A DNA stretch of 52,706 nt from Candidatus Moranbacteria bacterium RIFOXYA12_FULL_35_19 (GCA_001784805.1 MFSE01000006.1:1-52706); one strand, 5' to 3'. Positions 11,694 through 32,197 are shown, counted from the stretch's first letter. The notes: generated by a model not told the origin, from the sequence alone. Program-made: numbers and translations.

Positions 11694-14312
11694 TTATAAT
11701 TTTGCTATGTTTTTTAATAATTCTTTTTGACTTTTTATTTTTTCTCTGTATTCATTTAGTTTAATCTTATTATTTCCCACAACTTCCCTTGGTGCGCTGG
11801 CAAGGAAATTTTTGTTATTTAAGAGACCTTCGGTTTTTGAAATCAACTTTTCTAAGTTTATAATTTCTTTTTCCAAATTTTTCTTTTCTTTCTCGACATC
11901 AATTGATTCGATTATATCTAAATTTAAACTTGATACTTTGATTGATTTACTTTTTGTTTTTTCAGAAGAGATACTAACTCGCGCTAATTTTTCAATAATT
12001 TCCTTATTTGAAATTTTATTACTATATGCATTAATTATTTTCCCAGGATCAATATGATAGCTCGATCGGATATTTCTAATCTTGCCAATCATTTCTTGCA
12101 ATTCTCGAAATTCTTTCTCTGTTTTTTTATCAATTAATTTCTTGGAAGCTTCTGGCCACTTCTCAACCATTAGCAACTTCCTAAGGTTCAACCTTTGGCT
12201 AGCCAAAGGTTGAACCTTAGGAAGGATGGCATCACCATATATTTTTTCCGTCACAAACGGCATAAATGGATGCCACAGTTTCAAAATTTTATCGATCACA
12301 TATCCCAAAACTTTATCATTTTTTTCGAGTTTATGAATTTCAAGATACCATGAAGCTAATTCATCCCAAGTGAATTTAATAAGAATGTTTTCCGCCATGG
12401 CAATGTTTTTATTTTCCAACATTTTTGATGCCCCAAAAATTGCCTCATTAGCTCGCGAAACAATCCATTGATCAGCCAAGCTTTTAATATCTTTTTTAGA
12501 AATTTTTTCCACCAATTCAAATTTATCACTTGAGCTAAAACTATAACGATAGATATTCCAAAGTTTGGTCACAAAATTTCGATATTTTTCTATTTTTTCT
12601 TCATAGAGTCGCGTGTCTAATCCGGGAGTTGTGTCAGTAATAAGACTCATGCGAAGCGCATCCGCTCCATACTTCTCAATCATTGCTAATGGATCAACGC
12701 CATTGCCTTTAGATTTTGACATCTTTTGACCATCCTTGTCGCGAATCAGTCCCGTAAAAAATAAATTCTTAAATGGCACTTTACCGGTTCGATATAGCCC
12801 CATCATAATCATCTTAGAAGCCCAGAAAAAAAGCAGGTCGCGTCCCGTAACCATCATTTCAGTTGAATAAAAATCTTTATAGTCTTTGCCTTTTGGATAG
12901 CCCAAAGTTATGTATGGCCATTGAGCGGAAGAAAACCAAGTGTCAAAAGTATCCGAGTCTTGCATCAATTTTGTTCCCTTGCATTTTGGACAATTTTTTG
13001 GCTTTTCAATTGAAACAATATATTTTTCTTCTCCGCATTTTTCACAATACCAAACTGGAATTTGCGGTCCCCACCAAATTTGGCGCGAAATACACCAATC
13101 ATGCAAACCAGAAAACCAACCTGTCATTATTTTTCCAAAACTTTTTGGATAAATTTCAATCTTCCCTGTTTTGATCGCTTTTAAGGATTCTTTTTTTAGA
13201 GAATATTTTTTCGCATCCACATTCACAAACCATTGCTTGGAAATCAAAGGTTCAATCGTTTCCTTGCAACGCTCACAAACTGATTTATTGATTTCATTTT
13301 CTTCTATTTTTTCAATGAGGCCGAGCTTGGTCAAATCGCGTACAATATTTTCCCGTGCCTCTTCAACTTTTTGACCGACATATTTTCCGCCTAATTTTGT
13401 AATCTGCGCTTTTTCATTAATCACTTGAATTTCTTGGAGTTTATGATCTTTGCCAATTTGCCAGTCTAGCGGATCATGAGCTGGGGTAATTTTCACCGCG
13501 CCTGTACCAAATTCCATTTCCATTCTTCTATCGGAAATGATTGGAATTTCTCGATTTTGCAAAGGTAAAATAACAATTTTTCCCACTAATTTTTCAAAGC
13601 GTTTATCTTTTGGATTAACTGCCACGGCCGTGTCACCCAGCATTGTTTCTGGTCTTGTGGTCGCAACTGTAATAAACTGTTTAGAATCTTTCAGTGGATA
13701 TTTTATGTAATACAACCTTCCTGCTGTTTTTTTATGAAGCACTTCCACATCCGAAAGTGCAGTGGCACATCTAGGGCACCAGTTGATTATTCTTTCTCCG
13801 CGATAAATCATTCCGTCTTTTTCCATCTTGACAAAAGTCTCAAGCGCCCGAGAAAGAACGTCCGGATCAAGCGTGAATTTTTCTCGCGACCAATCCGCGC
13901 TGATACCGATTTTCTTTTCTTGCGCGCGCATATAATTTGACCTATCAATACAAAAGTCATAAATCTCCTTGTAGAATTTTTCTCGCCCTAAATCATATCG
14001 AGAAATCCCCCGTTCTGCTTTGATTTTTTTTTCATAAACTACTTGTGATTGAATTCCGGCGTGGTCTTTTCCTGGGAAAAGCAAAACTTTCTCCCCTTTC
14101 ATGCGGTGATAACGTCCAAAAATATCCATCACGGTGTAACCTGAAGCATGTCCAAGATGAAGCTCTCCATTAGCATTCGGTGGTGGCAAAATATTGCAAT
14201 ATTTTTTCTTGGATTTTATCTTGTCCGGACTAAAAAAACCACTCTCCTCCCAGAGCTTATATATCTCATCCTCATATTTATTCGCTTCGTATGTTTTTAA
14301 GATCTCTTTCAT
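11694..14312 (-). CDS. valS: Valyl-tRNA synthetase
   Basis: PPPNANGELHLGH, DWCISRQIWWG, KMSKSKGN, C-terminal coiled coil; start probably MKEILK. Confidence 0.97.
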   Translation of the reverse strand: MKEILKTYEANKYEDEIYKLWEESGFFSPDKIKSKKKYCNILPPPNANGELHLGHASGYTVMDIFGRYHRMKGEKVLLFPGKDHAGIQSQVVYEKKIKAERGISRYDLGREKFYKEIYDFCIDRSNYMRAQEKKIGISADWSREKFTLDPDVLSRALETFVKMEKDGMIYRGERIINWCPRCATALSDVEVLHKKTAGRLYYIKYPLKDSKQFITVATTRPETMLGDTAVAVNPKDKRFEKLVGKIVILPLQNREIPIISDRRMEMEFGTGAVKITPAHDPLDWQIGKDHKLQEIQVINEKAQITKLGGKYVGQKVEEARENIVRDLTKLGLIEKIEENEINKSVCERCKETIEPLISKQWFVNVDAKKYSLKKESLKAIKTGKIEIYPKSFGKIMTGWFSGLHDWCISRQIWWGPQIPVWYCEKCGEEKYIVSIEKPKNCPKCKGTKLMQDSDTFDTWFSSAQWPYITLGYPKGKDYKDFYSTEMMVTGRDLLFFWASKMIMMGLYRTGKVPFKNLFFTGLIRDKDGQKMSKSKGNGVDPLAMIEKYGADALRMSLITDTTPGLDTRLYEEKIEKYRNFVTKLWNIYRYSFSSSDKFELVEKISKKDIKSLADQWIVSRANEAIFGASKMLENKNIAMAENILIKFTWDELASWYLEIHKLEKNDKVLGYVIDKILKLWHPFMPFVTEKIYGDAILPKVQPLASQRLNLRKLLMVEKWPEASKKLIDKKTEKEFRELQEMIGKIRNIRSSYHIDPGKIINAYSNKISNKEIIEKLARVSISSEKTKSKSIKVSSLNLDIIESIDVEKEKKNLEKEIINLEKLISKTEGLLNNKNFLASAPREVVGNNKIKLNEYREKIKSQKELLKNIAKL
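12177..12224. repeat. 48-bp perfect palindrome in frame in valS
   Basis: CTTCCTAAGGTTCAACCTTTGGCT|AGCCAAAGGTTGAACCTTAGGAAG encodes LPKVQPLASQRLNLRK; identical at 31964-32011. Confidence 0.97.
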
Positions 14313-14314
14313 GA

Positions 14315-14932
14315 TTAAATACAACTCAATGATTCATTGAACTTAATAATATCGGTTAAGTTGTTGTTATAGTGTTTATTATTCATTACAACGCAATAAT
14401 CTGTACCGCACCCAGTAAAAACAAAAGTTCCCGTATCATGCTCGTTACATATTTTTAAATTATAAATATTTTCATTATCTGATTCTCTGTAATAATAAAT
14501 GTCTGTACACATACCCCAAAAACACTTTTTTGATAAATTGGTATTATATCTTTCTTTTATTTCTTCTAATTTTTTAGGGTATTTGCCTGTGTCATACTTA
14601 TACCGTTCAATATCTGAGATTATATCACTAAACTGCTTACCATATCCTTGTTTAATGATAAAATTCTTTTTTAAATTCATTACGCCTTTGCTTGCTATAT
14701 TTAAAATCACAAACATTAATATTAATATTCCAGAAGTTAAAATTATTTTAAGTCCAATAAATTTATTATAAAATACAAATATAATGCCAAAGATAAAGAG
14801 CAAAATTGAAAGCACTAACAAAAGCCATGTAAAAACAATTACATGCACATCAAAAGATTCTAATATAAAAAGAAAAAATAATAATACAATTACTAAAATA
14901 CTTAATATATTATCTAATAAAAATTTTTTCAT
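14315..14932 (-). CDS. Hypothetical membrane protein, very AT-rich
   Basis: Three TM segments, then a Cys-containing soluble domain. Confidence 0.7.
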   Translation of the reverse strand: MKKFLLDNILSILVIVLLFFLFILESFDVHVIVFTWLLLVLSILLFIFGIIFVFYNKFIGLKIILTSGILILMFVILNIASKGVMNLKKNFIIKQGYGKQFSDIISDIERYKYDTGKYPKKLEEIKERYNTNLSKKCFWGMCTDIYYYRESDNENIYNLKICNEHDTGTFVFTGCGTDYCVVMNNKHYNNNLTDIIKFNESLSCI

Positions 14933-14950
14933 TTTTATTTATACTAATAA

Positions 14951-17488
14951 TTATTTTCTCACCTCTACTTTCAATTCTTTTTCCAAGTCTGTAATAACTT
15001 TTTCCATCACCTCATCTACTTCTCTACTTTCCAATGTTCGTTCACTGGCTCCAAATTCAATATGATAAGCAAAACTGGTTTGATTGTCTTTTTTGAAAAC
15101 ATCAAACATATCCACCTTCATCACTAAGTTTCCGCCAACTTTTTTTATGATATTTTGAATATCAATCGCTCTGGTTTCACCTTTGGCAAGCATTGAAATA
15201 TCGCGAATAACCGTTGGAAATTTTTGAAGAGGCAAAAATATTTTCTGTTTTTCTGCCACCCTCATAAGCTTTTCAGTATCAAACTCACAAACTGCCACTC
15301 TTTTTTCAATTTTATACTTCTTGAGTGTCAGCGGATTAATTTCTCCAATCATTCCAATCTTTTCATTATTCACAATAATTTCCGCATTGCGCACCGGATG
15401 AGTCAGATGATTTTTTGGAAGATTTTTTTCCTTATATAAAATATTATCCTCCCCTATTCCTAAATTTTCCAATAAACTTTGAACTGTGCCTTTTAGATTA
15501 TAAAATGTTTCCGCGCCCTTATCCTTTTCCAAAACTTGCGCCATCACGAGCATTCTTTTTTCTTCTGTTCCTGTCATTCCGAACTCGTTTCGGAATCCAG
15601 ATCCTGAAACAAGTTCAGGATGACAAGAGTAAACTTTGCCGATTTCAAAAATATTAAAACTTTCAAAAATATTTATATTTGTTTTGACATTTTTCAAAAT
15701 ATTTGGTACCAGGCTAACTCGAACATATCTTTGATCAGGATTCATTGGACTAGAAAGTTCAAAATGCTTTACCCCGTGGACTACCGCCTTTGGCGGTTGT
15801 TGCAAAGCAACATAGTCCATGGGGTGAATACCATCCAAGGCGCAATTCTTAGTGTCAATCTCGGAATAGAAAGAATAATTATACATTTCATCAAAGCCAA
15901 AACCAACTGCAATTTCTCCAAGTTTTCTTTCAAAAGACAAAACTTCATTTATTTTGGCAGGTATAACTGGCTCAACAAGTGGAAGAGGTTTAATTTTTTC
16001 ATATCCCCAAATCCGTCCAATCTCTTCAATCAAATCTTCTTGAGTTTTGAGATCAACTCTAAATGTAGGAATAGTACACACTACCTTATATGGTTGAATA
16101 GTAGTGTTGATTCCTAATAAATTTAATATTCTTGTTATTTCTTTTTTTGGAATTATTTCTCCCAAAAGAGAGTTTACATATTCCAAATCTAATTTTATTT
16201 TGCAAGGCTTGATTTTATTTGGATAAATATCAATTACTCCTTCGAACTCTGCGCCAGCAGTGTGTTCCAAAACTTCTATGATTCTGACAATGGCTTTTTC
16301 CGCTAAATTTGGATCAATCTCTTTTTCAAAACGATCAGATGATTCAGTTTTCACGCCCAGTCTTGTTCTTGAGCGTCTGATATTGACGGCATCAAAATTA
16401 GCGGCTTCCAAAATTATTGTCTTGGTATTTTCATTTATGCCTGAATCTTTTCCACCCATAATTCCAGCCAGTGCCAACGGAGTTTCGCCATTAGTAATAA
16501 GCAAATCAGAATTATTCAATTCTAAAATTGATTCGTCCAATAAAACTAATTTTTCTTTATCCTTTGCTCTTCTGATAATAATTTGTAGTTTATTTTTGCT
16601 TGAAATTTTTTCTGCGTCAAAAGCGTGCATTGGTTGCCCAAGTTCCAACATCACATAATTTGTCGCGTCAACTACATTATTAATCGGACGAATTCCTGAA
16701 GCCTCCAATCTTTGTTTCATCCAACTTGGCGAATCTTTAATTTCTACATTTTCCATTACTGCGCCAATATAGCGAGAGCATAGCTTCTTGTCCTCAATTC
16801 GCACTCGTAGAGACGCAAAATTTTGCGTCTTTACACAAGGCAACTTAAGTCCATCAAAATCATATTCAAATTTCCTATTTTCTAAAACTGAAATTTCCCT
16901 CGCCACACCAACATGACTGGTTGCATCGTGCGCTCGATCCGGCAAAACCTTTATTTCAAAAATTGTATCATCTTCCACGCCTAAATATTTTTTAGCTGGC
17001 TCGCCAATTTTAGCTTTAGAATCCAAAATAAAAATTCCGCTATGATCAGTTCCGAGCCCCAGCTCGTCCAATGCGCAAAGCATACCAAAAGATTTTTCCC
17101 CGCGAATTTCCGCCTCCTTTATCTCTATTCCGTTTGGAAGCTTTGTTCCTGCTGTCGCTACTGGAACTTTATCCCCAACTGCAATATTTTTTGCCCCGCA
17201 AACAATATCCAAAACCCCCTCTCCTTTATAAGGAGAAGGTTGCCCGCCTGCCGGCGAGGCAGGGGGTGAGGTGTGTTTCCCGATATCAATTTTTGTCAAT
17301 TGCAACTTATCCGCATTAGGATGTTTTTTGATTTCCAAAATCTTCCCCACCACCACTCCATCAAAATTCCATTTTTTTTCTTCCATCCCCTCAATTTCTA
17401 ACGAATGCATCGTCAAAAGCTCCCTCACTTTTTCCGGGGATAATTTTGTACCTGATAATTCCTTTAGCCAATTATATGAATATTTCAT
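14951..17488 (-). CDS. pheT: Phenylalanyl-tRNA synthetase beta subunit, with four in-frame palindromic inserts
   Basis: MKYSYNWLKE, HPNADKL, NNVVDATNYVMLELGQPMHAFD, EDLIEEIGRIWGY. Confidence 0.97.
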   Translation of the reverse strand: MKYSYNWLKELSGTKLSPEKVRELLTMHSLEIEGMEEKKWNFDGVVVGKILEIKKHPNADKLQLTKIDIGKHTSPPASPAGGQPSPYKGEGVLDIVCGAKNIAVGDKVPVATAGTKLPNGIEIKEAEIRGEKSFGMLCALDELGLGTDHSGIFILDSKAKIGEPAKKYLGVEDDTIFEIKVLPDRAHDATSHVGVAREISVLENRKFEYDFDGLKLPCVKTQNFASLRVRIEDKKLCSRYIGAVMENVEIKDSPSWMKQRLEASGIRPINNVVDATNYVMLELGQPMHAFDAEKISSKNKLQIIIRRAKDKEKLVLLDESILELNNSDLLITNGETPLALAGIMGGKDSGINENTKTIILEAANFDAVNIRRSRTRLGVKTESSDRFEKEIDPNLAEKAIVRIIEVLEHTAGAEFEGVIDIYPNKIKPCKIKLDLEYVNSLLGEIIPKKEITRILNLLGINTTIQPYKVVCTIPTFRVDLKTQEDLIEEIGRIWGYEKIKPLPLVEPVIPAKINEVLSFERKLGEIAVGFGFDEMYNYSFYSEIDTKNCALDGIHPMDYVALQQPPKAVVHGVKHFELSSPMNPDQRYVRVSLVPNILKNVKTNINIFESFNIFEIGKVYSCHPELVSGSGFRNEFGMTGTEEKRMLVMAQVLEKDKGAETFYNLKGTVQSLLENLGIGEDNILYKEKNLPKNHLTHPVRNAEIIVNNEKIGMIGEINPLTLKKYKIEKRVAVCEFDTEKLMRVAEKQKIFLPLQKFPTVIRDISMLAKGETRAIDIQNIIKKVGGNLVMKVDMFDVFKKDNQTSFAYHIEFGASERTLESREVDEVMEKVITDLEKELKVEVRK
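15572..15625. repeat. 54-bp TGTCAT...ATGACA double-hairpin element in frame in pheT
   Basis: Encodes CHPELVSGSGFRNEFGMT; the 27 bp at 15599-15625 are identical to 26676-26702. Confidence 0.92.
15768..15828. repeat. Branched palindrome in frame in pheT
   Basis: TTTACCCCGTGGACTA/TAGTCCATGGGGTGAA stem enclosing hairpins ACCGCCTTTGGCGGT and TGTTGCAAAGCAACA. Confidence 0.85.
16807..16834. repeat. GTAG-type REP-like palindrome in frame in pheT
   Basis: GTAGAGACGCAAAATTTTGCGTCTTTAC, 28 bp with one mismatch; encodes VKTQNFASL. Confidence 0.85.
17215..17272. repeat. CCCCTCTCCT..AGGAGA..GGGTGAGG element with nested 21-mer, in frame in pheT
   Basis: GC-rich insert encoding TSPPASPAGGQPSPYKGEG between KLQLTKIDIG and IVCGAKN. 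Confidence 0.85.
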
Positions 17489-17494
17489 GTCTTT

Positions 17495-17950
17495 CTTTAC
17501 TAATTACTAATTTTATTACTAATATACTAATCCTCTAAATTTACAATTCTTTTATATCTCACACATTCTTTTGTAAAATAAACGAGTATACCTAATCTTA
17601 AATTCATCGCTTTTAAATAAGAATATAACTGATCGATATCTCTTTTTGAAAAATAATTCTTACTTTTTAATTCAATAACTATTTTATCAAAAACTAAAAA
17701 ATCAAAAATATAATAACCGATTTCTTTTCCTCTATGTTTAACTTTTGCTTTTAATTGTTCTTTAAATTCTATATTATTTTCTGAAAAAATATTTGCAACA
17801 GCTTTCTGATAAAAACTTTCTTTATGTCCATATCCAATTTCATTAAAAATACTAAAAATCAAACCAATAATCTTATAACATTCATCCTTATAAATTAAAT
17901 CATTTCTTATACTCATTAGTATATTTGTATATGATTAGTAATTAGTAAAG
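17495..17950. mobile_element. Inverted-repeat-flanked GxxExxY module between pheS and pheT
   Basis: Perfect 17-bp IR CTTTACTAATTACTAAT (17495-17511) / ATTAGTAATTAGTAAAG (17934-17950), plus further TACTAAT units. Confidence 0.65.
17527..17916 (-). CDS. GxxExxY protein (PD-(D/E)xK nuclease fold)
   Basis: GHKESFY motif, then FDFLVFDKIVIELKS..QLYSYLK. Confidence 0.9.
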   Translation of the reverse strand: MSIRNDLIYKDECYKIIGLIFSIFNEIGYGHKESFYQKAVANIFSENNIEFKEQLKAKVKHRGKEIGYYIFDFLVFDKIVIELKSKNYFSKRDIDQLYSYLKAMNLRLGILVYFTKECVRYKRIVNLED

Positions 17951-17956
17951 ACCTAG

Positions 17957-19012
17957 CTAAAATTGTTTAACAAACCTTAAATCTCCCGAATGAAACAATC
18001 TCACATCATCAATCTTATATCTCGTCATTGCGAGTCGTTCCAGTCCAAATCCCCACGCAAATCCCTGATATTTATTTCTTGGGTACCCCGCGGAAACAAA
18101 AACATTTTGGTTGACCATCCCGGCACCACCAAGTTCTAGCCAACCCGCCCACTTACAAGCCTTGCAACCCTTTCCGCCACAAACCGTGCAAGAAATATCA
18201 AATTCAAAACTTGGTTCTGTAAATGGAAAATAACTTGGACGCAGTCGCACATCCACATCTTGTTTGAAAAAAGCGGAAAAAAATTCTTTGGCAGTAAATT
18301 TCAAATTTCCTACATTCACATCCTCTCCTACAATCAAAGCTTCAAACTGATAGAAAGTATGCTCGTGAGTTGTGTCCGTAGCTTCACGACGAAAACATTT
18401 CCCTGGGACAATAATTCGAAGTGGTGGTTTATTTTTCTCCATATACCTAGCCTGCACCGCTGAAGTTTGACTTCGCATAGAAAAATTGTCCGCGTCTTTC
18501 CGCGTTCCGTCCGCGTTTGTCTGCGAGCGAAGCCAAAAAGTATCTTGCATATCGCGCGCCGGATGATCTTTGGGAATATTCAAGGCATCAAAATTATACC
18601 ATTCATTTTCAATTTCCGGACCATCAGCAATTTCATAGCCCATTGAAGTAAAAACATCTTCAATGTCACGACGCACCAGCGAAATTGGATTGAAGTGTCC
18701 TACACTTTTTTTCTTTCCGGGAATTGTCACATCAATTTTTTCTTTTTCCGCGTCAAAACTCCCACTTTCAATTTCAGTCTTTTTGTTTTTTATTATTTCA
18801 AAAATTTCATTTTTCGTGTTATTGGCTAATTCTCCAATTTGCCTTCTTTCTTCCGGTGTTAAATTTTTTAGATTTTTGAGAATAGAAATAAATTCGCTCT
18901 TTCTACCAACATATCTTTTTTCCAATTCAAAAAGAGCCTCCTCACTTGGCTTAATTTTCTCAATTTCCGCCAAAAACTGCTTCTTCAAATTTTCAATTTT
19001 TTCCTTTAACAT
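17957..19012 (-). CDS. pheS: Phenylalanyl-tRNA synthetase alpha subunit
   Basis: NFDALNIPKDHPARDMQDTF, RLRPSYFPFTEPS, FAWGFGLERL; start probably MLKEKI. Confidence 0.97.
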   Translation of the reverse strand: MLKEKIENLKKQFLAEIEKIKPSEEALFELEKRYVGRKSEFISILKNLKNLTPEERRQIGELANNTKNEIFEIIKNKKTEIESGSFDAEKEKIDVTIPGKKKSVGHFNPISLVRRDIEDVFTSMGYEIADGPEIENEWYNFDALNIPKDHPARDMQDTFWLRSQTNADGTRKDADNFSMRSQTSAVQARYMEKNKPPLRIIVPGKCFRREATDTTHEHTFYQFEALIVGEDVNVGNLKFTAKEFFSAFFKQDVDVRLRPSYFPFTEPSFEFDISCTVCGGKGCKACKWAGWLELGGAGMVNQNVFVSAGYPRNKYQGFAWGFGLERLAMTRYKIDDVRLFHSGDLRFVKQF

Positions 19013-19018
19013 AACCGT

Positions 19019-19158
19019 TGTCATTCCCGCGTAGGCGGGAATCTAGTCTCGAATTTATCTTAAAATTCAAGAATATTTTTATATACTATTTTTTCATTTA
19101 GCCTCTACACTGGATTCCCGTTTTCCTACCTCGCCGGCAGGCGGGCACGGGAATGACA
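19019..19158. repeat. TGTCATTCCC..GGGAAT (dRS3-like) miniature element upstream of pheS
   Basis: ATTCCC-N8-GGGAAT left arm; right arm GGATTCCCGTTTT[21-mer]CACGGGAATGACA; first 29 bp identical to 28690-28718. Confidence 0.88.
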
Positions 19159-19261
19159 ATTATATCGACATTTATATTCTAAGCTAAAAAAAGGCTTTTT
19201 GCAAACTAATAAAAAACTAGAATTAGGCGGGAGTTGGGCATCTCCCGCTAAAATATTAGGT

Positions 19262-19432
19262 TTATTTATAAAGTTCAACAACGGGAATTTCGTGTTTACA
19301 ATTTCCACAAGGAATAAACCACCAAACAGAATGATACTGTTTATGTTTACATTGAGGACAAATAATATAGCCAGCTCCTCCGACTCCAAATGTAAACTGT
19401 TTTTCTTCTTCTTTACTATCCTTATTGCTCAT
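19262..19432 (-). CDS. Small zinc-ribbon protein (56 aa, not in ORF track)
   Basis: GGAGG SD then MSNKDSKEEEKQFTFGVGGAGYIICPQCKHKQYHSVWWFIPCGNCKHEIPVVELYK; hairpin GCGGGAG..CTCCCGC follows. Confidence 0.65.
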   Translation of the reverse strand: MSNKDSKEEEKQFTFGVGGAGYIICPQCKHKQYHSVWWFIPCGNCKHEIPVVELYK

Positions 19433-19485
19433 AGTATCCCTCCTTTTTTGATTTTTTCGCCCAATTCTAATTTTTTATTCAATTT

Positions 19486-19725
19486 TTAAAATCCCATCTT
19501 CTGCTTTGCCATTCGGTATTGCTCTTCGGTGATTTGTCCAGACTTTTTCATTTGTTCCATCGCAGACAGAAGTTTATCCCGATTTTCCGGTTTGAAGGCT
19601 TCCTGCATTAATTTCTGTTGCTCTTGCGGACTCATATTTTGCAATTTTTTCATGGCCACTTTCTGCATCATATTTACCGCCGTCGAACTAATTTTTGACT
19701 TTGCTTTTTGAAATGGATTCCACAT
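19486..19725 (-). CDS. Small Met/Gln-rich helical hypothetical protein
   Basis: 79-aa ORF co-oriented downstream of secF. Confidence 0.65.
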   Translation of the reverse strand: MWNPFQKAKSKISSTAVNMMQKVAMKKLQNMSPQEQQKLMQEAFKPENRDKLLSAMEQMKKSGQITEEQYRMAKQKMGF

Positions 19726-19734
19726 AGTAATTCC

Positions 19735-19835
19735 CTACAAAATTACAAAATTTTACAAAAATACAAATATACAAAATGTTGTTTTTTCATTTTTTGTACT
19801 TTTGTATTTTTGTATTTATTTTGTACTTTTGTAGT
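19735..19835. repeat. TACAAAA-heptad inverted-repeat element overlapping the secF stop
   Basis: (TACAAAA)n arm then (TTTTGTA)n arm. Confidence 0.75.
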
Positions 19836-20724: not shown

Positions 20725-20730
20725 AATTTT

Positions 20731-22988: not shown

Positions 22989-23000
22989 AATAATCTTCCT

Positions 23001-23542: not shown

Positions 23543-23588
23543 TTTATTTCCCGCAACATTTTTAGACTTCAATAGTGTCCCACAAAAA

Positions 23589-23915: not shown

Positions 23916-23926
23916 AATTTTATATT

Positions 23927-26623
23927 TTATTTCCCGCAACACTTCTTATACTTTTTACCCGACCCACACGGACACGGATCATTTCGACCAACTTTATTAT
24001 TGTTGATTATTGGAGATAGTTTTTTAGTTTCTTGTTTATTATTTATTGATCCTTGTTCATTGTTCTTTGATTCTTGTTTCGCGGCAGAAAACTGTTCGAC
24101 TTCCCCGCCTCCACTATAATTCAAATTATTTTGCTTAGAAGTTTCTTGAGTCTTGGGAGCTACCAAACTTACTTTGAAAATCGTGCGCACAATAGAAGAT
24201 CGGATATTATTAAGTAGTTGCGAAAACATATGATATGCTTCTTTTTTATATTCAATCAAGGGATCTCTTTGGCCGTAACCACGCAGGCCAATGCCGTCTC
24301 GCAGATAATCCATTTCGTCCAAATGATTCATCCAAGTCATATCCATTGTCTGAAGAATTATCATTTTTTCAATGCTTCGCATATTTTCACTGCCAATTTC
24401 TTGCTCTTTTTTATTATAAGCTTCCTTGACGAGACCAATTAGATATTCCGTCATCGCTGATATTTTTTCCGCTGAATTCTTAGCATTATTATTTTTTATC
24501 TCTTCCAGTTTTTTCTCCACCGCTTTTTCTGCCGGAATAATATTTTTCACTCCTTCATATATCTCATGTGTTTGGAATTTTTCTTCTTCGGCGCTATAAA
24601 AAGAAACTAGATTTTCCATTTCTTGACTGATATACCCAAGCATTTCATTTTTTAGATCTGGCGCGCCTAAAATTTCTTTGCGTTTTTTATAAATAACTTC
24701 CCGCTGTTTATTCATTACATCGTCATATTCCAAAACATGTTTTCGAATATCAAAGTTGAAGCCTTCAATTTTCGATTGAGCGTTTTCAATTGTCCGAGAA
24801 ATTATTTTATTTTGAATCGGCTGATCTTCTGGCAGTCCCAGCGTATTCATCATATTTATCAGTTTGTCTCCCCCAAAACGACGCATCAGTTCATCTTCCA
24901 AGGACACAAAAAATTGACTCATCCCAGGGTCGCCTTGCCGGCCAGCGCGTCCCCGAAGCTGATTGTCAATGCGCCGAGCTTCATGCCGTTCTGTTCCCAA
25001 AATAAAAAGTCCACCCAAATCTTTCACGCCTTCGCCAAGTTTAATGTCCGTTCCTCTTCCCGCCATATTAGTTGCAATCGTAACTGACCCCTTTTGCCCA
25101 GCATTTTGGATTATGAGCGCTTCTTTTTCATGTTGCTTAGCATTCAAAACTTCATGCTTCACTCCAAAGCGAGTGAGAAGCGCGCTTAGATATTCCGATT
25201 TTTCAATGGCAATTGTTCCGACCAAAACCGGCTGACCAATTTTATTGATTTCTTTGATCCGCTCACAAATCGCATTAAATTTTCCTTTTTCTGATTTATA
25301 CACAATATCCGGTAAATCTTTTCTGACCAAAGGTTTATTAGTTGGAATTTCTACCACATCAATATTGTAAACTTTATGAAATTCTTCAGCTGAAGTTGAA
25401 GCTGTTCCTGTCATACCAGAAAGTTTGTTGTACATTCGAAAATAATTTTGAAAAGTAATCGTCGCCAAAGTTCTAGATTCTTTTTGCACTTGAACTTTTT
25501 CTTTAGCTTCAATCGCCTGATGAAGACCTTCGGAGTATCGTCGTCCGGGCATAAGCCGTCCCGTAAAGTCATCCACAATTATCACTTCACCATCTTTCAC
25601 TACATAATCTCGATCGCGTTCAAAAATAATTTGAGCTTTGAGAGCTTGTTCTAGATGATGGACATAATTTATTTTTCCCGCTTCATAAATATTCCCCATT
25701 CCAAGCCAATCTTCAATTTTTGAAATTCCACTGTCTGTGATGGAAACCGCCTTCATTTTTTCATCCACTTCAAAATCATCGCCTCTTTTTAGCCTTGGAA
25801 CAAGCGAAGCAAATTGCTGATACATCTTAGTTGATTCCGAATCCGGCGCACTAATGATAAGAGGCGTTCTGGCTTCATCAATTAAAATTGAATCGACTTC
25901 ATCCACGATCGCAAAATTCAAATGTTTTTCCGCGTCAATTTTCGTTTCAATCTGTTTAAGTCCGCGAGCTTGGGCCATCTGGTCCAAGCTATGCACCATA
26001 TTATCGCGCAGATAATCAAAACCGAATTCATTATTGGTGCCATAAGTGATGTCAGCGTTATAAGCATCGCGCCTAGAAACTTCTTTAAGATTTTGCATTT
26101 CAATACTAACCTCATTTTCATCAATTATTTTTGGTTCATAAATATATGAAGTGTCATGAATAATACAAGCCGTGGAAATTCCAAGAAAATAAAGGATACC
26201 GCCCATCCAATTACAATCTCTTTTCGCCAGATAATCATTGACTGTGACAATATGCACTCCCTTGCCAGTCAAAGCATTGAGGTACATTGGCAAAAGTGCA
26301 GTGTGAGTTTTTCCTTCTCCCGTTTTCATTTCGGCAATTCTGCCTTGATGCAAAATTATCCCGCCTGTCATCTGTACATCAAACAATCTTTTGTTATCCA
26401 CTCTCTTGACCGCTTCACGCACAACAGCAAAAGCCTCCGGCAAAATTTCATCCAGTGTTTCTTTTTCTTCTATGCGTTTTTTAAATTCTTCAGTTTTAGC
26501 GCGAAGTTCTTCGTCTGACAATTTGGAAATTTCCGCTTCCAAAGAATTTATTTTTTCGACAATCGGACGAGTTCTGGCGACCTCTTTTTCATTCGAACCA
26601 AAAAGTTTACTGATAATTGACAT
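23927..26623 (-). CDS. secA: Protein translocase ATPase SecA
   Basis: EMKTGEGKT, AIVDEVDSILIDEARTPLIIS, SEC-C motif GRNDPCPCGSGKKYKKCC; start MSIISK. Confidence 0.98.
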   Translation of the reverse strand: MSIISKLFGSNEKEVARTRPIVEKINSLEAEISKLSDEELRAKTEEFKKRIEEKETLDEILPEAFAVVREAVKRVDNKRLFDVQMTGGIILHQGRIAEMKTGEGKTHTALLPMYLNALTGKGVHIVTVNDYLAKRDCNWMGGILYFLGISTACIIHDTSYIYEPKIIDENEVSIEMQNLKEVSRRDAYNADITYGTNNEFGFDYLRDNMVHSLDQMAQARGLKQIETKIDAEKHLNFAIVDEVDSILIDEARTPLIISAPDSESTKMYQQFASLVPRLKRGDDFEVDEKMKAVSITDSGISKIEDWLGMGNIYEAGKINYVHHLEQALKAQIIFERDRDYVVKDGEVIIVDDFTGRLMPGRRYSEGLHQAIEAKEKVQVQKESRTLATITFQNYFRMYNKLSGMTGTASTSAEEFHKVYNIDVVEIPTNKPLVRKDLPDIVYKSEKGKFNAICERIKEINKIGQPVLVGTIAIEKSEYLSALLTRFGVKHEVLNAKQHEKEALIIQNAGQKGSVTIATNMAGRGTDIKLGEGVKDLGGLFILGTERHEARRIDNQLRGRAGRQGDPGMSQFFVSLEDELMRRFGGDKLINMMNTLGLPEDQPIQNKIISRTIENAQSKIEGFNFDIRKHVLEYDDVMNKQREVIYKKRKEILGAPDLKNEMLGYISQEMENLVSFYSAEEEKFQTHEIYEGVKNIIPAEKAVEKKLEEIKNNNAKNSAEKISAMTEYLIGLVKEAYNKKEQEIGSENMRSIEKMIILQTMDMTWMNHLDEMDYLRDGIGLRGYGQRDPLIEYKKEAYHMFSQLLNNIRSSIVRTIFKVSLVAPKTQETSKQNNLNYSGGGEVEQFSAAKQESKNNEQGSINNKQETKKLSPIINNNKVGRNDPCPCGSGKKYKKCCGK

Positions 26624-26635
26624 AAATAAAAAACT

Positions 26636-26702
26636 TGTCATGCTGAATTTATTTCAGCATCTCAAGTAAATTCCTAGATCCTGAAACAAGTTCAGGATGA
26701 CA
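26636..26702. repeat. TGTCAT...ATGACA double-hairpin element upstream of secA
   Basis: TGTCATGCTGAATTTATTTCAGCATCT...AGATCCTGAAACAAGTTCAGGATGACA; right arm identical to the pheT insert. Confidence 0.9.
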
Positions 26703-26768
26703 TTTCTAATGGCTTAATTTAACCTATTTATTCTAGCAAAAAAAGAGGCGGGAGTCAAAAGAAGATTT

Positions 26769-27602
26769 TTAGTTTATAAATTTGAAGGTGAAGAGAATTT
26801 GATCAAAAATATTTTTAAATTCTCCAAAATAAGAACCTGTTGAGATTTCAATTATGGTTCCATTTTTATTGATAATTAAACCTTTGGGATAATAAATCAT
26901 TCCAACACTTACGCCAGACATTAAGGCTTCGTTAATCTGTTTAATTTCTTTTTCCTTTTTTGTTTCATTATATCCATATTCAACTGCTCTAAAACCACCA
27001 ATAAAGTAACTTCTTAATTTCAGATCACCAAATCCATTAACAATTGAGTTGTCTGGAGTATTGTAATAGCTTTCAAATCTACTTACAGCGACATCTATTC
27101 TTATTTCAACTGATTGCTTTGAATAACTAAACTTTTCTGCTGGAGTTGCTTCTTGCTTTGCTAAAAAAATTTGTTGCCCTTCCTCTTTTATATAGAAATT
27201 TTCTGGATATTTTATCTCAAACCCATATTTTTCATTCCTATAAGTTTTCCAATCAGAAATATCAATTTGTTTTTGACTATCGCCTATTTTACATTCTCCT
27301 CTCTGAAATGCCCATTCTTCACATTGCGACCCATCAGAAAATTTGCACATTCCGCTTTGACTGCCGTCAGTGGCCGTGATAATTTCCAATTTTCCGCCAT
27401 TCTCCTCACAAAAAACCGAGGCTGGATTGGCCATGCCAACATTATTTTCTTTTACTTTTGGTTCCGGAATTTTAATTGTCTTTTGTGGCACTGAAACAGA
27501 AATATTATTCATCTCATAGACTTCCCAAACAAACATTCCCGCCGTGATTGCTATGATAATTATAATTGTTGTTCCTAGCCAAGTTTTTATTTTTGTGTTC
27601 AT
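26769..27602 (-). CDS. Membrane-anchored protein with DUF333-like and PsbP-like regions
   Basis: TM; MANPASVFCEENGG..C..CEEW; WKTYRNEKYGFEIKYP. Confidence 0.75.
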   Translation of the reverse strand: MNTKIKTWLGTTIIIIIAITAGMFVWEVYEMNNISVSVPQKTIKIPEPKVKENNVGMANPASVFCEENGGKLEIITATDGSQSGMCKFSDGSQCEEWAFQRGECKIGDSQKQIDISDWKTYRNEKYGFEIKYPENFYIKEEGQQIFLAKQEATPAEKFSYSKQSVEIRIDVAVSRFESYYNTPDNSIVNGFGDLKLRSYFIGGFRAVEYGYNETKKEKEIKQINEALMSGVSVGMIYYPKGLIINKNGTIIEISTGSYFGEFKNIFDQILFTFKFIN

Positions 27603-27605
27603 ATT

Positions 27606-28577
27606 TTATTTATTAATTAGTAGTTCAAAAGTCTGCAATATTTTTTCAGCTTCATCACATCTAGCCTGTTGAAAAGCATCAAATTGTCCGCCACCAGTAT
27701 CATTTTTTTGTCCACAACAACCATCGCAATAATAAACTTTGTCAGCATCTTCAGTTATTTTAGTAAGCGCTGATTTATTAGCAGTGTTATTCCATTCCTT
27801 TTTCGTGACAACCCTGATGGTTATTAGGCAAAAGGGCTGATGATTGTTTCTAAAGCTAAAACAAACACTCTTATCATTAGGCTGGTTACTTTCATTTGCC
27901 GTATATCCTTTCCAAGATTCAGGAAAACCCAAGCCAAATCCGATTTTTTCATTTTTATACGATCTCCAATCCAACAGGTTAGTTTTTTCTATTATATTAG
28001 AAAATTTCACAGGTAATTTAAATTCTTCATCCAGTTCCCGCATATCAGATGGATTATCTTTTTTGAAAAGAAGATATCCCTTTTCTGTTTTCGGCTCACT
28101 AAAATTGATTTCGCATCTAAAATCCACGAAGTCTTCCGTCATCCAAGTATCATTTTCTGATTTTGAAATAAATGAACAAAAGTGCGATCCCAGCTTTTTG
28201 TCATTATCATCATAAACTTCACCGGGAAAATCACCTTCGAAAAACCAACCGCCGACTGCACTTCCCAAAATCAAAACTGGACTGGCTATTTCATCATTCG
28301 GTTTTAGCGAAGTTATTATAATTTTGTTTGCAATTCCAACAATTTCTGGACACGGTGCAAATTCACAATTTGGCGCAATTCGAGAAACTGCCGAGCCGTC
28401 CGGACAAATTTTTGCTTCTTCCGTACAAGCCACTGGCTTATTCTTCTTGGGAATGTTAATGATTGGATTATTTTCAGTTTTAATTCCTTTCCACAGATAA
28501 AAAGAAATTCCAGTCAAAAAAATTGCCAGAATTATTATCACACTAAACGCTAGAATTGTTGATATCTTTTTATTCAT
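27606..28577 (-). CDS. Membrane-anchored surface protein (Cys motif, Gmad2/Ig-like, PsbP-like)
   Basis: TM; ACTEEAKICPDGS..CEFAPCP; GWFFEGDFP..KDNPS; WRSYKNEKIGF. Confidence 0.72.
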   Translation of the reverse strand: MNKKISTILAFSVIIILAIFLTGISFYLWKGIKTENNPIINIPKKNKPVACTEEAKICPDGSAVSRIAPNCEFAPCPEIVGIANKIIITSLKPNDEIASPVLILGSAVGGWFFEGDFPGEVYDDNDKKLGSHFCSFISKSENDTWMTEDFVDFRCEINFSEPKTEKGYLLFKKDNPSDMRELDEEFKLPVKFSNIIEKTNLLDWRSYKNEKIGFGLGFPESWKGYTANESNQPNDKSVCFSFRNNHQPFCLITIRVVTKKEWNNTANKSALTKITEDADKVYYCDGCCGQKNDTGGGQFDAFQQARCDEAEKILQTFELLINK

Positions 28578-28689
28578 TATATTTGTTTTAAAAAATTATC
28601 TAAAGTATTTTTGTTTCATGTTTCATGCTTTATGATTTTATTATACCACAAAAAAAGAAAATTGTCCCGAATGTTCGGGACAACTCTTC

Positions 28690-28819
28690 TGTCATTCCCG
28701 CGTAGGCGGGAATCTAGTTTTAAAGTTTTATTTATTGCAAAGACTCAAATGTTTTGCAAGGCTTCTGCACTGAATCCCCGCAGGAGTTTATGCTCGCGAA
28801 AGCGGGTGCGAGGATGACA
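28690..28819. repeat. dRS3-like miniature element after hpf
   Basis: TGTCATTCCCGCGTAGGCGGGAATCTAGT identical to 19019-19047; ends GGATGACA. Confidence 0.88.
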
Positions 28820-28824
28820 TAGTA

Positions 28825-29190
28825 TTAGAACCTTGCGTCTTTACTAATCACAATTTTTTTCTTAAGCGAGCGAGCTCCGCGTTCGCGGATATCTTTGAGC
28901 TTGCTTTTATCCTTAGTGATTTGTTTTTGTAATTCTTCAATGACCATATCCGTTGAACCTTCCACACTTTCAGAAATTTCTGTCGCTCGATATAATTTGT
29001 ACGGAGTTTTGATCATCACTTCTACATAAAATTTTCCTTTTTTATCCATTGAAATTTCCACTTCGTATTCCAAGGATTTTTTCAAAAATTTTTCCATCTT
29101 CTGAATTCTTTTCATAATATAATCCTTGGTGCGATCATCTAACTTGACATTCTTGCAAAATAAACGAAGATTGAGAATTGTGTTTGGCAT
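28825..29190 (-). CDS. hpf: Ribosome hibernation factor HPF/RaiA family
   Basis: KNVKLDDRTKDYIMKRIQKMEKF..D..IEELQKQI; usual position upstream of secA. Confidence 0.78.
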   Translation of the reverse strand: MPNTILNLRLFCKNVKLDDRTKDYIMKRIQKMEKFLKKSLEYEVEISMDKKGKFYVEVMIKTPYKLYRATEISESVEGSTDMVIEELQKQITKDKSKLKDIRERGARSLKKKIVISKDARF

Positions 29191-29220
29191 ATAATTTAAT
29201 TTAAATTAATTAGCTTATAT

Positions 29221-29334
29221 TCCTTACAAATTACGAACTTTTACGAATGTACCAATGTGAATTAAAAATAATTTTTATTTTTTATTTAATTATTTGCAAT
29301 TCGTACATTCGTACCAATTCGTAATTCGTAAGGA
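29221..29334. repeat. TACGAA-heptad inverted-repeat element between murB and hpf
   Basis: TCCTTACAAATTACGAA ... TTCGTAATTCGTAAGGA. Confidence 0.8.
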
Positions 29335-29337
29335 TTA

Positions 29338-30291
29338 CTAGAAGCCCACATATTGCACTTCTTCTTGAAGTTGCACGCCCAACTCATCGCGCACTTTCAT
29401 TTTGATAACACTAGAAAGCATCACAATATCCTGCGCTTTAGCATTGCCTACATTTACTACAAAATTAGCATGCTTTTCGCTCACTGCAGCACCCCCAATT
29501 TTTTTCCCGCGTAGCCCAACCTCGTCTATCAGCCAGCCAGCCGGAATTTTTGAATCTATTGCCTTCTGGCCAGTGTCTTTTTCAAAACGATTAATCAATT
29601 CCTGATTTTCCACCTTTGGATTCTTGAAAAAACTTCCAGAACTTGGTTTTTTAGGATTTGGATGAACTGTATCAGAGCGTTTCTTGATAATTTCTTTTAT
29701 TTTATTATTTATTTCTTCCTGATCGCCCTTTTCTAATTTCAAAACAGCCGAAATTATAATCAGATCTTTATTTTCTTTGAAAATGCTATTGCGATATGCA
29801 AACTTACATTCACTTTTCCTAAGGTTCAACCTTTGGCTAACCAAAGGTTGAACCTTTATGACTTCCACGCTTTCCGCATTATCCGCCATGCAACCCAACG
29901 GTATCCCAGCATTTCCCCGAATCGCTCCACCAACTGTTCCAGGAATTCCCGATGCCCATTCAAGTCCGGAAAGTGAATTTTGCATTGCTAAATTAACAAC
30001 TGAGCTCAAAGAGGCACCGGCAGAAACTTCAATTTTATTTTCTTGTATCTTGTATCTTGCGTCTTGTATCTTGATTACTAATCCATCAAATCCATCGTCG
30101 CTTATAAGAATATTACTCCCTCCGCCCAGCACAAAAATTTCCAAATTATTTTCTTTGGCAAATTGCAAAGCCTCAAGAAGCGCCTCTTCGTCGCTCACTT
30201 CTACAAAGTATTTCGCCGGTCCACCGATTTTGAAAGTAGTCAACGGCGCAAGAGAAATATTTTTTTGGATTTTTAAAATTGGCATAAACAA
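29338..30291 (-). CDS. murB: UDP-N-acetylenolpyruvoylglucosamine reductase
   Basis: TTFKIGGPA, LGGGSN, GIPGTVGGAIRGNAG, SGSFFKNP, KHANF. Confidence 0.96.
   Translation of the reverse strand: MFMPILKIQKNISLAPLTTFKIGGPAKYFVEVSDEEALLEALQFAKENNLEIFVLGGGSNILISDDGFDGLVIKIQDARYKIQENKIEVSAGASLSSVVNLAMQNSLSGLEWASGIPGTVGGAIRGNAGIPLGCMADNAESVEVIKVQPLVSQRLNLRKSECKFAYRNSIFKENKDLIIISAVLKLEKGDQEEINNKIKEIIKKRSDTVHPNPKKPSSGSFFKNPKVENQELINRFEKDTGQKAIDSKIPAGWLIDEVGLRGKKIGGAAVSEKHANFVVNVGNAKAQDIVMLSSVIKMKVRDELGVQLQEEVQYVGF
29816..29856. repeat. Truncated copy of the valS/RAYT palindrome in frame in murB
   Basis: TTCCTAAGGTTCAACCTTTGGCTAACCAAAGGTTGAACCTT, one mismatch; encodes KVQPLVSQRLNLRK. Confidence 0.95.
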
Positions 30292-30363
30292 ATATTAAAA
30301 AATTTACAACTTAATTTTCAAAATATTTCGATTGTAAATATTTTTATTTTTTAGCATTCTATT

Positions 30364-31509
30364 TTAATTTTGTTTGTGTAACAACCTATCAATTATCATC
30401 ACGAATTCATCTTCATTATCCTCTCTTACTTTTTTAAAAGCTTCTTGATAGAGTTCTAATATCTTTTTAAGCTCCGGCCCGATCTTACTAAGCACATCTT
30501 GATTACCATTAATAAAAAAATCGGCAATTCCTTTTAAATTTAATTCGGCTTCCTTATTATATTTTTCTCTTTGATCCCTACTTAAACTTTCAATATATTC
30601 TCTTATTGGCCCTTCTTGAAAACCCATAATTTGATCTATTCTATCTCGCTCAGCTTCCATTTCTTTTGTTTCTTTGATTTTTGACTGTTTTTCGAAATAT
30701 TTTTGATACATTTTTTTAAAATCAACTTTCGAAAAATATTGTTTATTTTTCTCGATATATTCTTGGGCTTCTTTTTTATTCTTTGAATCTGGGAAAATAT
30801 CATCCTCAGCTTCACAAATAATTGCAGCAAAATTCCCCAAAACTGATCCAGCCGCTGCTTCCTTATTATATATTGGAATAATTTCATATTCAATCATTGA
30901 TTCCTTAATTTTCAGAACTTTAACGCCCTCTATTTCGCCAAGCTCCGGTTTAATTTTTCTAACACTGCCCGACCCGTTTAAAAAATCAACATACCACCAT
31001 TCGCCGTTAGACAATCTAACCACATTAATTGCATGGCTAACTGGGCTACCCCAATAATTTTCAATTCCGGCTTTTTCAAGCATATGCAATCCGATAAGCG
31101 ATGATCCGACACAACTGAATTGCCCCAATTCTTTCATTTTTTTAGGCCAGGAGTCCCATCTTGCGCTTTTTGATTTATCAAATTTTTCAATCAAATTATC
31201 AATTTTTTTGTGGCAATCTTGAATATATTTTACTTCCAAATCTGATTTTAATTCTGAATTTTTCTCCTCTCTTAAGGCTTTGATCAGATTTTCATCTGGA
31301 ACTAAATTCCATTCTTCACATAAACTTTCAATTTGTTCCATTAAAGTCTCATACATCCATTTTTTTATTTCTTCATCTTCTAAATTTTTCGGATCTAAGA
31401 TTGTTTTCTCTGGAATTAAAACCATATCCCGCCAAGCAGAAATAAATTCTTTCTTTTTTTCTTTAGAAATTTCTTTTTCCTTATTATTTTTTGGCCATTC
31501 ATTAGTCAT
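30364..31509 (-). CDS. Hypothetical protein, possible transglutaminase/papain-like Cys-His-Asp fold
   Basis: FSCVG..SHAINVV..WWYVDF spacing. Confidence 0.55.
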   Translation of the reverse strand: MTNEWPKNNKEKEISKEKKKEFISAWRDMVLIPEKTILDPKNLEDEEIKKWMYETLMEQIESLCEEWNLVPDENLIKALREEKNSELKSDLEVKYIQDCHKKIDNLIEKFDKSKSARWDSWPKKMKELGQFSCVGSSLIGLHMLEKAGIENYWGSPVSHAINVVRLSNGEWWYVDFLNGSGSVRKIKPELGEIEGVKVLKIKESMIEYEIIPIYNKEAAAGSVLGNFAAIICEAEDDIFPDSKNKKEAQEYIEKNKQYFSKVDFKKMYQKYFEKQSKIKETKEMEAERDRIDQIMGFQEGPIREYIESLSRDQREKYNKEAELNLKGIADFFINGNQDVLSKIGPELKKILELYQEAFKKVREDNEDEFVMIIDRLLHKQN

Positions 31510-31525
31510 AAAATATTTTTATAAT

Positions 31526-32197
31526 TTATTCTAAAATATATTCTTCTAATTCTTTCTTATCCTTAAAATAATCAGCATTATTTTTTATATACTTTTCGTA
31601 TTCATCAAAATTATTATCAAACTGCCCCAAAATAATTTCTTTGTTACATAACTTTCCCTCTCTCTTCCCAGTATAATCCAAAAAGCTGGAATATGGCCAA
31701 TCCTTTTCCGAAAACCCATGAATTTCGTGATTAACATTCACATAGGCCGAAAGCAAAAGAAGATATTCGTTGGAGTCGATGTGGATGGATTTAAATCTTC
31801 CCTGAAAAAGAGCTCCTGAACGTTTGGTTTTTTTATTAAAATACATAGTATAACTAGTACCGACTTTTTGCATAAATTTAACTATGCCATTATTTTGCTC
31901 TTGTTTTACTATAAAATGATAGTGATTAGGGTTAAGACAATAAGCAATAATAGAAACGATTGGCTTCCTAAGGTTCAACCTTTGGCTAGCCAAAGGTTGA
32001 ACCTTAGGAAGCTCTGCTATTCCATTTTTATGTAAATCTCTCCATATCAACATCAATCCATCTTTTTCATCATTCAACAAACTCATCCCCAAAATAAACC
32101 TCTCATAATCTTTCTTATCCAAAAACACCTCCCGCTTATCTACTCCACGGTTATATATGTGGTAATATTCACCATTGGCAAATTCAGTTTTTCGCAT
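31526..32197 (-). CDS. REP-associated tyrosine transposase (RAYT, Y1 HUH family)
   Basis: YYHIYNRG, AYCLNPNHYHF, YFNKK..RSGALFQGRF, Y.N.N, WPYSS. Confidence 0.9.
   Translation of the reverse strand: MRKTEFANGEYYHIYNRGVDKREVFLDKKDYERFILGMSLLNDEKDGLMLIWRDLHKNGIAELPKVQPLASQRLNLRKPIVSIIAYCLNPNHYHFIVKQEQNNGIVKFMQKVGTSYTMYFNKKTKRSGALFQGRFKSIHIDSNEYLLLLSAYVNVNHEIHGFSEKDWPYSSFLDYTGKREGKLCNKEIILGQFDNNFDEYEKYIKNNADYFKDKKELEEYILE
31963..32012. repeat. 50-bp perfect palindrome inside the RAYT ORF
   Basis: Contains the 48-mer found in valS. Confidence 0.97.

Follow-up and report, generated by a model that had tools for sequence, protein, structure and literature searches.

The window analysed in this work is a stretch of 52,706 nucleotides (nt) from Candidatus Moranbacteria bacterium RIFOXYA12_FULL_35_19 (GCA_001784805.1, MFSE01000006.1:1-52706), a tiny groundwater bacterium with a genome of 0.99 Mb; its assembly (988.7 kb, 32 contigs) is designated G000, and coordinates given without a contig are those of the window. 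Three genes of the minus strand carry related palindromic DNA within their reading frames: valS (valyl-tRNA synthetase, ValRS; 11694-14324; ValRS PF00133, E 5.8e-118), murB (UDP-N-acetylenolpyruvoylglucosamine reductase; 29338-30291; MurB identity confirmed) and a gene for a RAYT-like tyrosine transposase of the Y1 (HUH) type (31526-32197, 223 amino acids (aa); PF01797 Y1_Tnp, 32.9 bits, cutoff 23). The palindrome, its dispersed copies and their relation to this gene, hereafter the RAYT gene, are described here.

A perfect palindrome of 48 base pairs (bp), equal to its own reverse complement, was located in valS (12177-12224, strand.) and, with 100% identity, in the open reading frame (ORF) of the RAYT gene (31964-32011, strand.); in the latter it encodes residues 63-78 and the perfect palindrome extends to 50 bp (31963-32012), and in the former it encodes residues 700-715 out of 876, which belong to the anticodon-binding domain. 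The murB copy (41 bp, 29816-29856, strand.) is 98% complementary to the others and holds a perfect 36-bp core (29821-29856). The element is a doublet: two 13-nt hairpin units, AAGG-TTCAA-CCTT and its complement, stand inverted around a 10-nt palindromic spacer and give a doublet stem of 23 to 25 bp, which is the layout of a REPIN, a hairpin-forming doublet of repetitive extragenic palindromes (REPs). The 13-mer core gave 12 matches in the window at one mismatch or fewer (0.07 expected; 0 of 100 shuffles reached 12), and a 60-nt stretch, taken as single-stranded DNA (ssDNA), folded at −27 kcal/mol (z = −11; stem of 23 bp). A resemblance of the unit to a tRNA T-arm was considered; the loop is one of 5 nt here, not 7. 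No Rfam family was matched at the palindromes; the scan of the window returned only RNase P RNA and the 3' end of 16S rRNA.

The perfect 48-mer has a single open frame out of three, and reading the other strand gives that frame again; ValRS and RAYT therefore contain the identical peptide LPKVQPLASQRLNLRK. MurB contains IKVQPLVSQRLNLRK, and the common translation of the three copies is ..KVQPL.SQRLNLRK. The initial annotation of the window had reported the identical valS/RAYT pair, the 41-bp murB copy and a peptide that is the same in either orientation, and it was borne out on each of these points. An assembly artefact was ruled out, because independent genomes show these elements too, at orthologous sites. 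The stretch, in part at least, was present in 20 groundwater or soil runs, in all of them as contigs, and no RNA runs were listed.

The HUH motif of the RAYT protein (H92-Y93-H94) is encoded at 31916-31924 and a candidate catalytic tyrosine, Y152 in SAYVNVN, at 31742-31744 (both on the minus strand); H92, H94 and Y152 are invariant in an alignment of 26 homologs. The catalytic role of Y152 is presumed by analogy to other Y1 transposases. A structure model was built on the 26 homologs (predicted local distance difference test, pLDDT, 82; predicted template modelling score, pTM, 0.81) and compared with the PDB by Foldseek; the top match was 4er8_A, the E. coli RAYT bound to a REP hairpin (E 1.4e-5, probability 1.00), followed by structures of the IS608 and ISDra2 TnpA proteins. 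The palindrome-encoded residues 63-78 form a hypervariable stretch, variable in length and sequence, just before the HUH-bearing strands; in the model, where they lie between helix 47-57 and strand 81-88, they give the internal blocks of lowest confidence (10-residue means of 52 and 67). No flanking copy was found at the window RAYT gene, whose gaps to its neighbours are 7 and 16 nt, and the nearest copy is that in murB, 1.7 kb away. G000 contains four RAYT paralogs, 49-57% identical in protein; near-identical copies of the whole RAYT locus, as expected of an IS200/IS605 element, were not found in it (best paralog 57% identical). Sampling of 301 genomes across the phylum gave a RAYT homolog in 79, and the nearest Atlas clusters, taken as a lead only, belong to Minisyncoccota and Woesebacteria.

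Each of the four G000 paralogs carries a different hairpin, and all four hairpins occupy the same spot just before the HUH strand. In the paralogs on contigs C5, C10 and C23 the internal hairpin is found also in the flanks (on both sides in two of them, downstream only in one), and for two families of singlet hairpins 3 of 6 and 4 of 7 genomic copies lie at the respective RAYT locus. The survey of homologs covered 57 modelled RAYT-like ORFs from about 45 genomes, five further loci being without an ORF model; a perfect hairpin was defined by a stem of at least 7 with at least 3 G or C in it. Such a hairpin was present in the pre-HUH window (7,896 nt in total) of 32 ORFs; the remainder of the ORFs gave 10 hairpin loci in 22,485 nt, so that the pre-HUH density is about 9 times higher. 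The rate was 25 of 30 for homologs of the same order and 7 of 27 for those of the phylum sample. The flanks, taken to 150 nt, share a 9-mer with 23 of the 32 internal hairpins, and with 5 of the 7 in distant homologs; the earlier statement that no copy flanks the RAYT gene thus holds for the lineage of the window and fails for the group at large. Most homologs have copies also about 30-50 nt before the start codon and directly behind the stop codon, and these two outer units mostly point the same way; against the upstream unit, the internal one is inverted in 7 of the 8 loci with informative loops (manual reading of the locus listing), which points to an ordered architecture and not to random hits. 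The congruence of enzyme and hairpin rests on the 26-homolog alignment and on the locus listings.

Nine doublets of the valS/RAYT palindrome family were found in G000, each inside a gene matching a Pfam family: ValRS, CysRS, ArgRS, MetRS, MurB, thymidylate kinase, a Wzy_C protein, TsaE and RAYT. With two variant doublets of the GGAGG type they make 11 sites, 11 of 11 within long ORFs, and 20 of 20 units of the family lie within ORFs of at least 150 aa, contrary to the extragenic position of REPINs. Doublets of related families, with GGACAT-NNN-ATGTCC units, were located in 11 further genes, all with housekeeping Pfam matches (RlmN-like, PrmC-like, KsgA, AIR-synthase-like, UvrA, RNase HII, FemAB, Mur ligase, DnaG, TsaD and PGK). 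The initial annotation is supported by comparison in placing the palindrome of the RAYT ORF in a family dispersed through the genome, and further copies in housekeeping genes. The cysS copy is read in another frame, and three substitutions fall exactly at the stops of that frame of the 48-mer, which is consistent with this copy being translated; peptides from different frames are unrelated (SKGSTFGVPKVEPLE and LPKVQPLASQRLNLRK).

Several observations on hosts and on other hairpins may be added. Class I aminoacyl-tRNA synthetases (CysRS, ArgRS, MetRS and ValRS) make up 4 of the 8 non-RAYT hosts of the family; those outside the window lie at C3:1518-2984, C21:67360-69141 and C21:97392-98843 of G000, and in all four the insert stands at or near the junction with the anticodon-binding part. 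Their share may be above chance, such genes being by estimate about 2% of the genome. The thymidylate kinase (216 aa, C20:10499-11146) holds two different doublets, one of the family (10709-10756) and one of the GGACAT type (10938-10975), and a 630-aa ORF at C13:35792-36907 contains five copies of the palindrome TGTTCCACGTGGAACA, similar ones being present in G005, G013 and G001. Other hairpin families lie mostly outside long ORFs: 6 of 27 units of ATTCCCGC-N4-GCGGGAAT were found in ORFs of at least 150 aa. A REP-like hairpin, TGTCATTCCCGCGTAGGCGGGAATCTAG, was noted at 19019-19061 and 28690-28732 (27 genomic units, 6 in ORFs of at least 150 aa); several of its units form nearby inverted pairs, and no cognate enzyme was identified for it.

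In the genus, RAYT orthologs 73-89% identical to that of the window lie on the same contig as murB and, in 4 of 5 (G003, G004, G006 and G007), within 3 kb of it, as is expected for vertical inheritance. These syntenic orthologs carry four different palindromes. Forward matches per genome, each pattern being the one inside that genome's RAYT ortholog, were as follows: AAGGTTSRACCTT, 15 in G000, 12 in G001, 2 in G006 and 0 in the other six genomes; GAAGCTWAGCTTC, 12 in G003, 2 in G006, 1 each in G007 and G008, 0 in the rest; GGGACTWAGTCCC, 6 in G004, 2 in G001, 1 in G002, 0 in the rest; TCGAGGTNNNACCTCGA, 12 in G006, 2 in G002, 1 in G001, 0 in the rest. All four patterns are commonest in their own genome, where, as with RAYT systems, the palindrome is over-represented; copy numbers are modest. 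It had been proposed to check whether other RAYTs carry a different palindrome that matches the repeats of their own genome, and these four patterns agree with this, as do two further genomes: G021, of another genus, has a RAYT 78% identical in protein with the identical internal palindrome at the same place (locus L010) and 8 matches, 2 of its 3 other doublets lying within 3.4 kb of the RAYT gene; G024 has a different internal palindrome and 0 matches. In G001 the RAYT copy is of a TTCGA variant, and so are nearly all dispersed copies of that genome; at the cysS and tmk sites, which are orthologous, the two genomes disagree in both half-sites, with the CAA type in G000 and the CGA type in G001, as in the RAYT copies, and the metG and tsaE sites have CGA in both genomes. 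The dispersed copies change in concert and track the RAYT-internal variant.

These data bear also on age. The identity of the copies had been taken earlier as a sign of a recent event; with the identical palindrome in a 78% identical RAYT of another genus and internal hairpins in 25 of 30 homologs from the order, the copy in the RAYT ORF is ancient and not recent, and recent copying or homogenisation is plausible for the valS copy only, at whose site the closest relative carries a different variant. The valS site is empty in 10 of 15 orthologs and holds extra sequence of any kind in 5; the net gain in G000 is 36 nt against the empty orthologs, G001 and G006 have 42 extra nt with the CGA variant, and G008 and G004 have other sequences. 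At the murB site, called a copied insert before, a copy is indeed present, and 96 nt in G000 correspond to 90 nt in five relatives; since the net gain is only 6 nt, the palindrome replaces native coding sequence and is not a plain insertion. Four other relatives have other inserts at this site. Ten doublets of G001 were aligned to G000: 4 sites are filled in both genomes, 5 have other repeated sequence in G000 instead of the doublet (a different doublet family in 2, a different single hairpin in 1, CGAAA-type or simple repeats in 2), and the remaining 1 has no palindrome in G000. By these alignments the doublet sites are hot-spot linkers with occupants turning over.

Two observations concern occupants of such sites. 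The ValRS of G006 is 57% identical to that of G000, compared with 89% for G001 (L039), and its insert nearly equals the 42-nt insert of G001 with similar flanks (L050 against L039); this could be due to local recombination or transfer. Intergenic repeats rich in ACGAAAT/TACGAAA occur at 7234-7332, 9570-9650, 11070-11127 and 29218-29337 in direct and inverted copies 84-93% alike (the pair at 29218-29337 is 79% complementary); sequence of this kind also occupies the valS hot spot of G008 and, in G000, one of the sites that correspond to a doublet of G001.

The window contains further features: RNase P RNA class A (11197-11526, minus strand; Rfam, 158 bits); the 3' end of 16S rRNA at the window edge (52293-52706, minus strand; Rfam); small hairpin pairs at 15576-15621 and 26640-26698 (ATTCCGAA..TTCGGAAT, ATCCTGAA..TTCAGGAT and ATGCTGAA..TTCAGCAT), the first of them inside an 845-aa ORF (14951-17488); and a 219-nt direct repeat, 83% identical (40701-40919 and 43119-43337), that covers the 5' ends of the ORFs 40200-40913 and 43086-43331 plus a few nt upstream.

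Taken together, the palindromes are probably non-autonomous doublets of the REPIN type, and belong with a clade of RAYT-like Y1 HUH transposases that occurs widely among genomes of the candidate phyla radiation (CPR, or Patescibacteria) type; the system would be an intragenic, in-frame form of REPIN-RAYT, embedded in the gene of its own enzyme, and this kind has not been described before as far as we found. The doublet anatomy and the conserved position of the internal hairpin were observed directly. A link between the internal palindrome and the repeat family of the genome is supported by comparison across paralogs, genomes and genera: judged by nucleotide matches, the internal, flanking and dispersed copies covary, and half-site changes at orthologous copies follow the RAYT-internal variant of each genome. 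Doublets are, moreover, nearly absent from three genomes that gave no RAYT match. Doublet-type palindromes (perfect, stem of at least 13, nested unit hairpin) numbered 26 in 989 kb of G000 and 9 in 400 kb of G001, or 35 in 1.39 Mb of RAYT-positive sequence, against 2 in 937 kb of G005, 0 in 362 kb of G012 and 0 in 382 kb of G013, or 2 in 1.68 Mb; for the latter three no RAYT was found by tblastn at E < 1e-3 in the sampled parts, and the whole genomes also gave no match.

The best-supported account is thus a REPIN-RAYT system adapted to a genome almost without intergenic space. The elements would persist in frame in permissive linker loops of genes, many of them essential, with recurrent hot spots, and would be read in the sole open frame or in a frame whose stops were removed; the RAYT gene would keep one cognate hairpin or doublet in its own ORF, in the hypervariable loop before the HUH strand. 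The enzyme would bind and cut the hairpins as ssDNA and so spread or homogenise them, like TnpA of IS200/IS605 and TnpA-REP of E. coli, and the internal copy would link enzyme and substrate genetically as a donor or reference copy, as a self-regulating site, or as both.

Several points weigh against this account. The NCBIfam RAYT equivalog NF047646 was not reached (31.5 bits, cutoff 80; match to residues 80-170 only). The RAYT ortholog of G001 (L009, G001:C36:8999-9667, 89% identical) has an in-frame TAA that leaves an ORF of 191 aa, and G001 nonetheless holds about 12 doublets of the matching variant. The contrast between genomes with and without RAYT sets 2 genomes against 3; they are related, and for three of the five the sample was partial. 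Copy numbers amount to 4-13 doublets per genome, against tens to hundreds for classical REPINs in the available text of Bertels 2017 (10.1101/119735). No target-site duplication or clean footprint was seen at valS (+36 nt), at murB (+6 nt) or at the G001 sites, and the murB copy and several G001 copies substitute for sequence rather than adding to it. Of the 26 perfect doublets of all families, 24 fall within ORFs of 100 aa or more, a class that makes up 0.89 of the genome; genes are thus not avoided, yet not preferred either, the location in genes is not above chance, and an enrichment in coding sequence was rejected. A perfect internal hairpin was found in only the 7 of 27 distant homologs given above. 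Finally, the occupants of valS and murB also change between genomes in step with the families of each genome, so that covariation alone cannot separate a special RAYT loop from one more hot spot.

This last point leads to the main rival, in which the pre-HUH loop is one more permissive linker where the active family of the genome lands; the internal copy would then have no role for the enzyme, which may still mobilise the family, and the note from which this work started had named such a passive insertion as the alternative. The hypervariability of the loop in length and sequence and its low model confidence agree with this, as do the like turnover of occupants at the valS and murB sites and the lack of a perfect hairpin in 5 of 30 close and 20 of 27 distant homologs. 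It is nevertheless considered unlikely, for a hairpin occupies the loop in 25 of 30 close RAYT homologs, compared with extra sequence of any kind in 5 of 15 valS orthologs, the position is kept across divergence at the level of the phylum with the flank 9-mer in 5 of 7 distant homologs that have a hairpin, about half of the copies of the singlet families lie at the RAYT locus, which is about 0.1% of the genome, and the inversion of the internal unit against the upstream one recurs in 7 of 8 informative loci. At the other extreme stands the reading that the RAYT-ORF copy is the family's master copy, a mobile substrate held in frame in the gene of its own enzyme and never separable from it. We advance it tentatively, as less probable than not: the cassette would be copied out into permissive loops of essential genes, where deletion is risky, and would overwrite older copies, which would explain the 48/48 identity with valS and the genome-wide switch from CAA to CGA; a swap of the internal cassette would found a new family, which would explain the four different palindromes in syntenic orthologs 73-89% identical in protein.

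Two other explanations dispense with the enzyme or with the DNA element. Were the palindromes spread without RAYT, through template switching during replication, gene conversion among short palindromes or the action of a different enzyme, the co-occurrence with RAYT would reflect shared ancestry; the replacement of sequence by several copies with little change of length, a half-site change that could stem from gene conversion, the stop codon in the G001 RAYT and the small number and relatedness of the compared genomes would all fit. Such a spread is improbable in view of the hairpins of one family that both flank and sit inside individual paralogs, each paralog with a different sequence, of the four orthologous genus RAYTs that each match the family of their own genome, of the clustering of copies near the RAYT gene (2 of 3 other doublets within 3.4 kb in G021) and of the closest solved structure, an enzyme bound to exactly such a hairpin. 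Alternatively, a basic peptide (..PKVQPLASQRLNLRK..) might have been selected as a module useful in its hosts, for instance in RNA contact in tRNA synthetases, with palindromy secondary. The class I synthetases among the hosts (4 of 8 non-RAYT hosts, insert near or in the anticodon-binding part) and the cysS copy, which lost three stops and is open in another frame, speak for it; this is very improbable all the same, since different frames give unrelated peptides (SKGSTFGVPKVEPLE against LPKVQPLASQRLNLRK), it is the DNA palindrome that is conserved, perfect at 48/48 nt, and not the peptide, most orthologs are without the insert, and other families with other peptides fill the same sites.

An element of the REP/REPIN type is here intragenic and translated, its hosts including essential genes such as those for four tRNA synthetases, MurB, primase and UvrA, and in genomes sampled throughout the phylum the transposase ORF holds a cognate copy at a conserved position. 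A functional link would supply a candidate enzyme for the mobilisation of in-frame coding palindromes and would account for some of the lineage-specific inserts seen in housekeeping proteins of the CPR, and enzyme and substrate would have a way to stay linked in very compact genomes almost without intergenic space; natural pairs of hairpin and enzyme, four of them in G000, would become available for the study of ssDNA recognition by Y1 HUH enzymes. If, further, the internal copy is the master copy, the joint inheritance and joint diversification of a domesticated transposase and its repeats would here take a new form. In the literature searched, supplementary files being outside its scope, no report was found that places a REP within the ORF of a RAYT or that describes REPINs within genes of CPR bacteria.

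The nearest known systems are the REPIN-RAYT systems of Pseudomonas and Enterobacteria (Bertels & Rainey 2011, PMC3116915; Bertels 2017, 10.1101/119735), to which the comparison applies as far as the available parts of these texts describe them. The systems have in common a Y1 HUH enzyme (best structural match here 4er8), inverted hairpin doublets that form one long hairpin, and genome-specific repeat families matched to a vertically inherited, syntenic RAYT gene, the paralogs being flanked by cognate hairpins. REPINs are described there as extragenic (Bertels 2017) and RAYT genes as flanked by REPs or REPINs, whereas the elements described here lie inside genes and are translated, the cognate copy is inside the RAYT ORF and the window gene is without a flanking copy; moreover, there are about 10 copies per genome, the NCBIfam cutoff for RAYT is unmet and no tag of the GTAG type was identified. 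The IS200/IS605 elements (IS608, ISDra2 TnpA) share the fold, and their subterminal left-end and right-end hairpins resemble the hairpins upstream and downstream of the paralogs; unlike them, the RAYT loci show no near-identical whole-element copies, the paralogs are 49-57% identical, the orthologs are syntenic and an extra inverted hairpin is present in the ORF.

Among palindromes that are translated, the Rickettsia palindromic elements (RPEs; in-frame palindromic inserts of about 150 bp; Ogata 2000, 2002, cited in the review PMC10969869) are closest, and the elements found here agree with them, as portrayed in the available part of that review, in being palindromic repeats in frame in unrelated housekeeping genes of a small genome and compatible with protein function. 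They differ from the RPEs in size (36-50 bp against about 150 bp), in organism and in that each family is paired with a copy-bearing Y1 gene, a distinction drawn by description; the available part of PMC10969869 names no cognate transposase for the RPEs. The PARCELs (palindromic amphipathic repeat coding elements, PMC2996958) and the coding palindromes of Nematomorpha mitochondria (PMC6649704) are likewise palindromic DNA translated within genes; in the accessible portions of these two sources organisms, sizes and repeat organisation differ from ours and no linked HUH enzyme is described.

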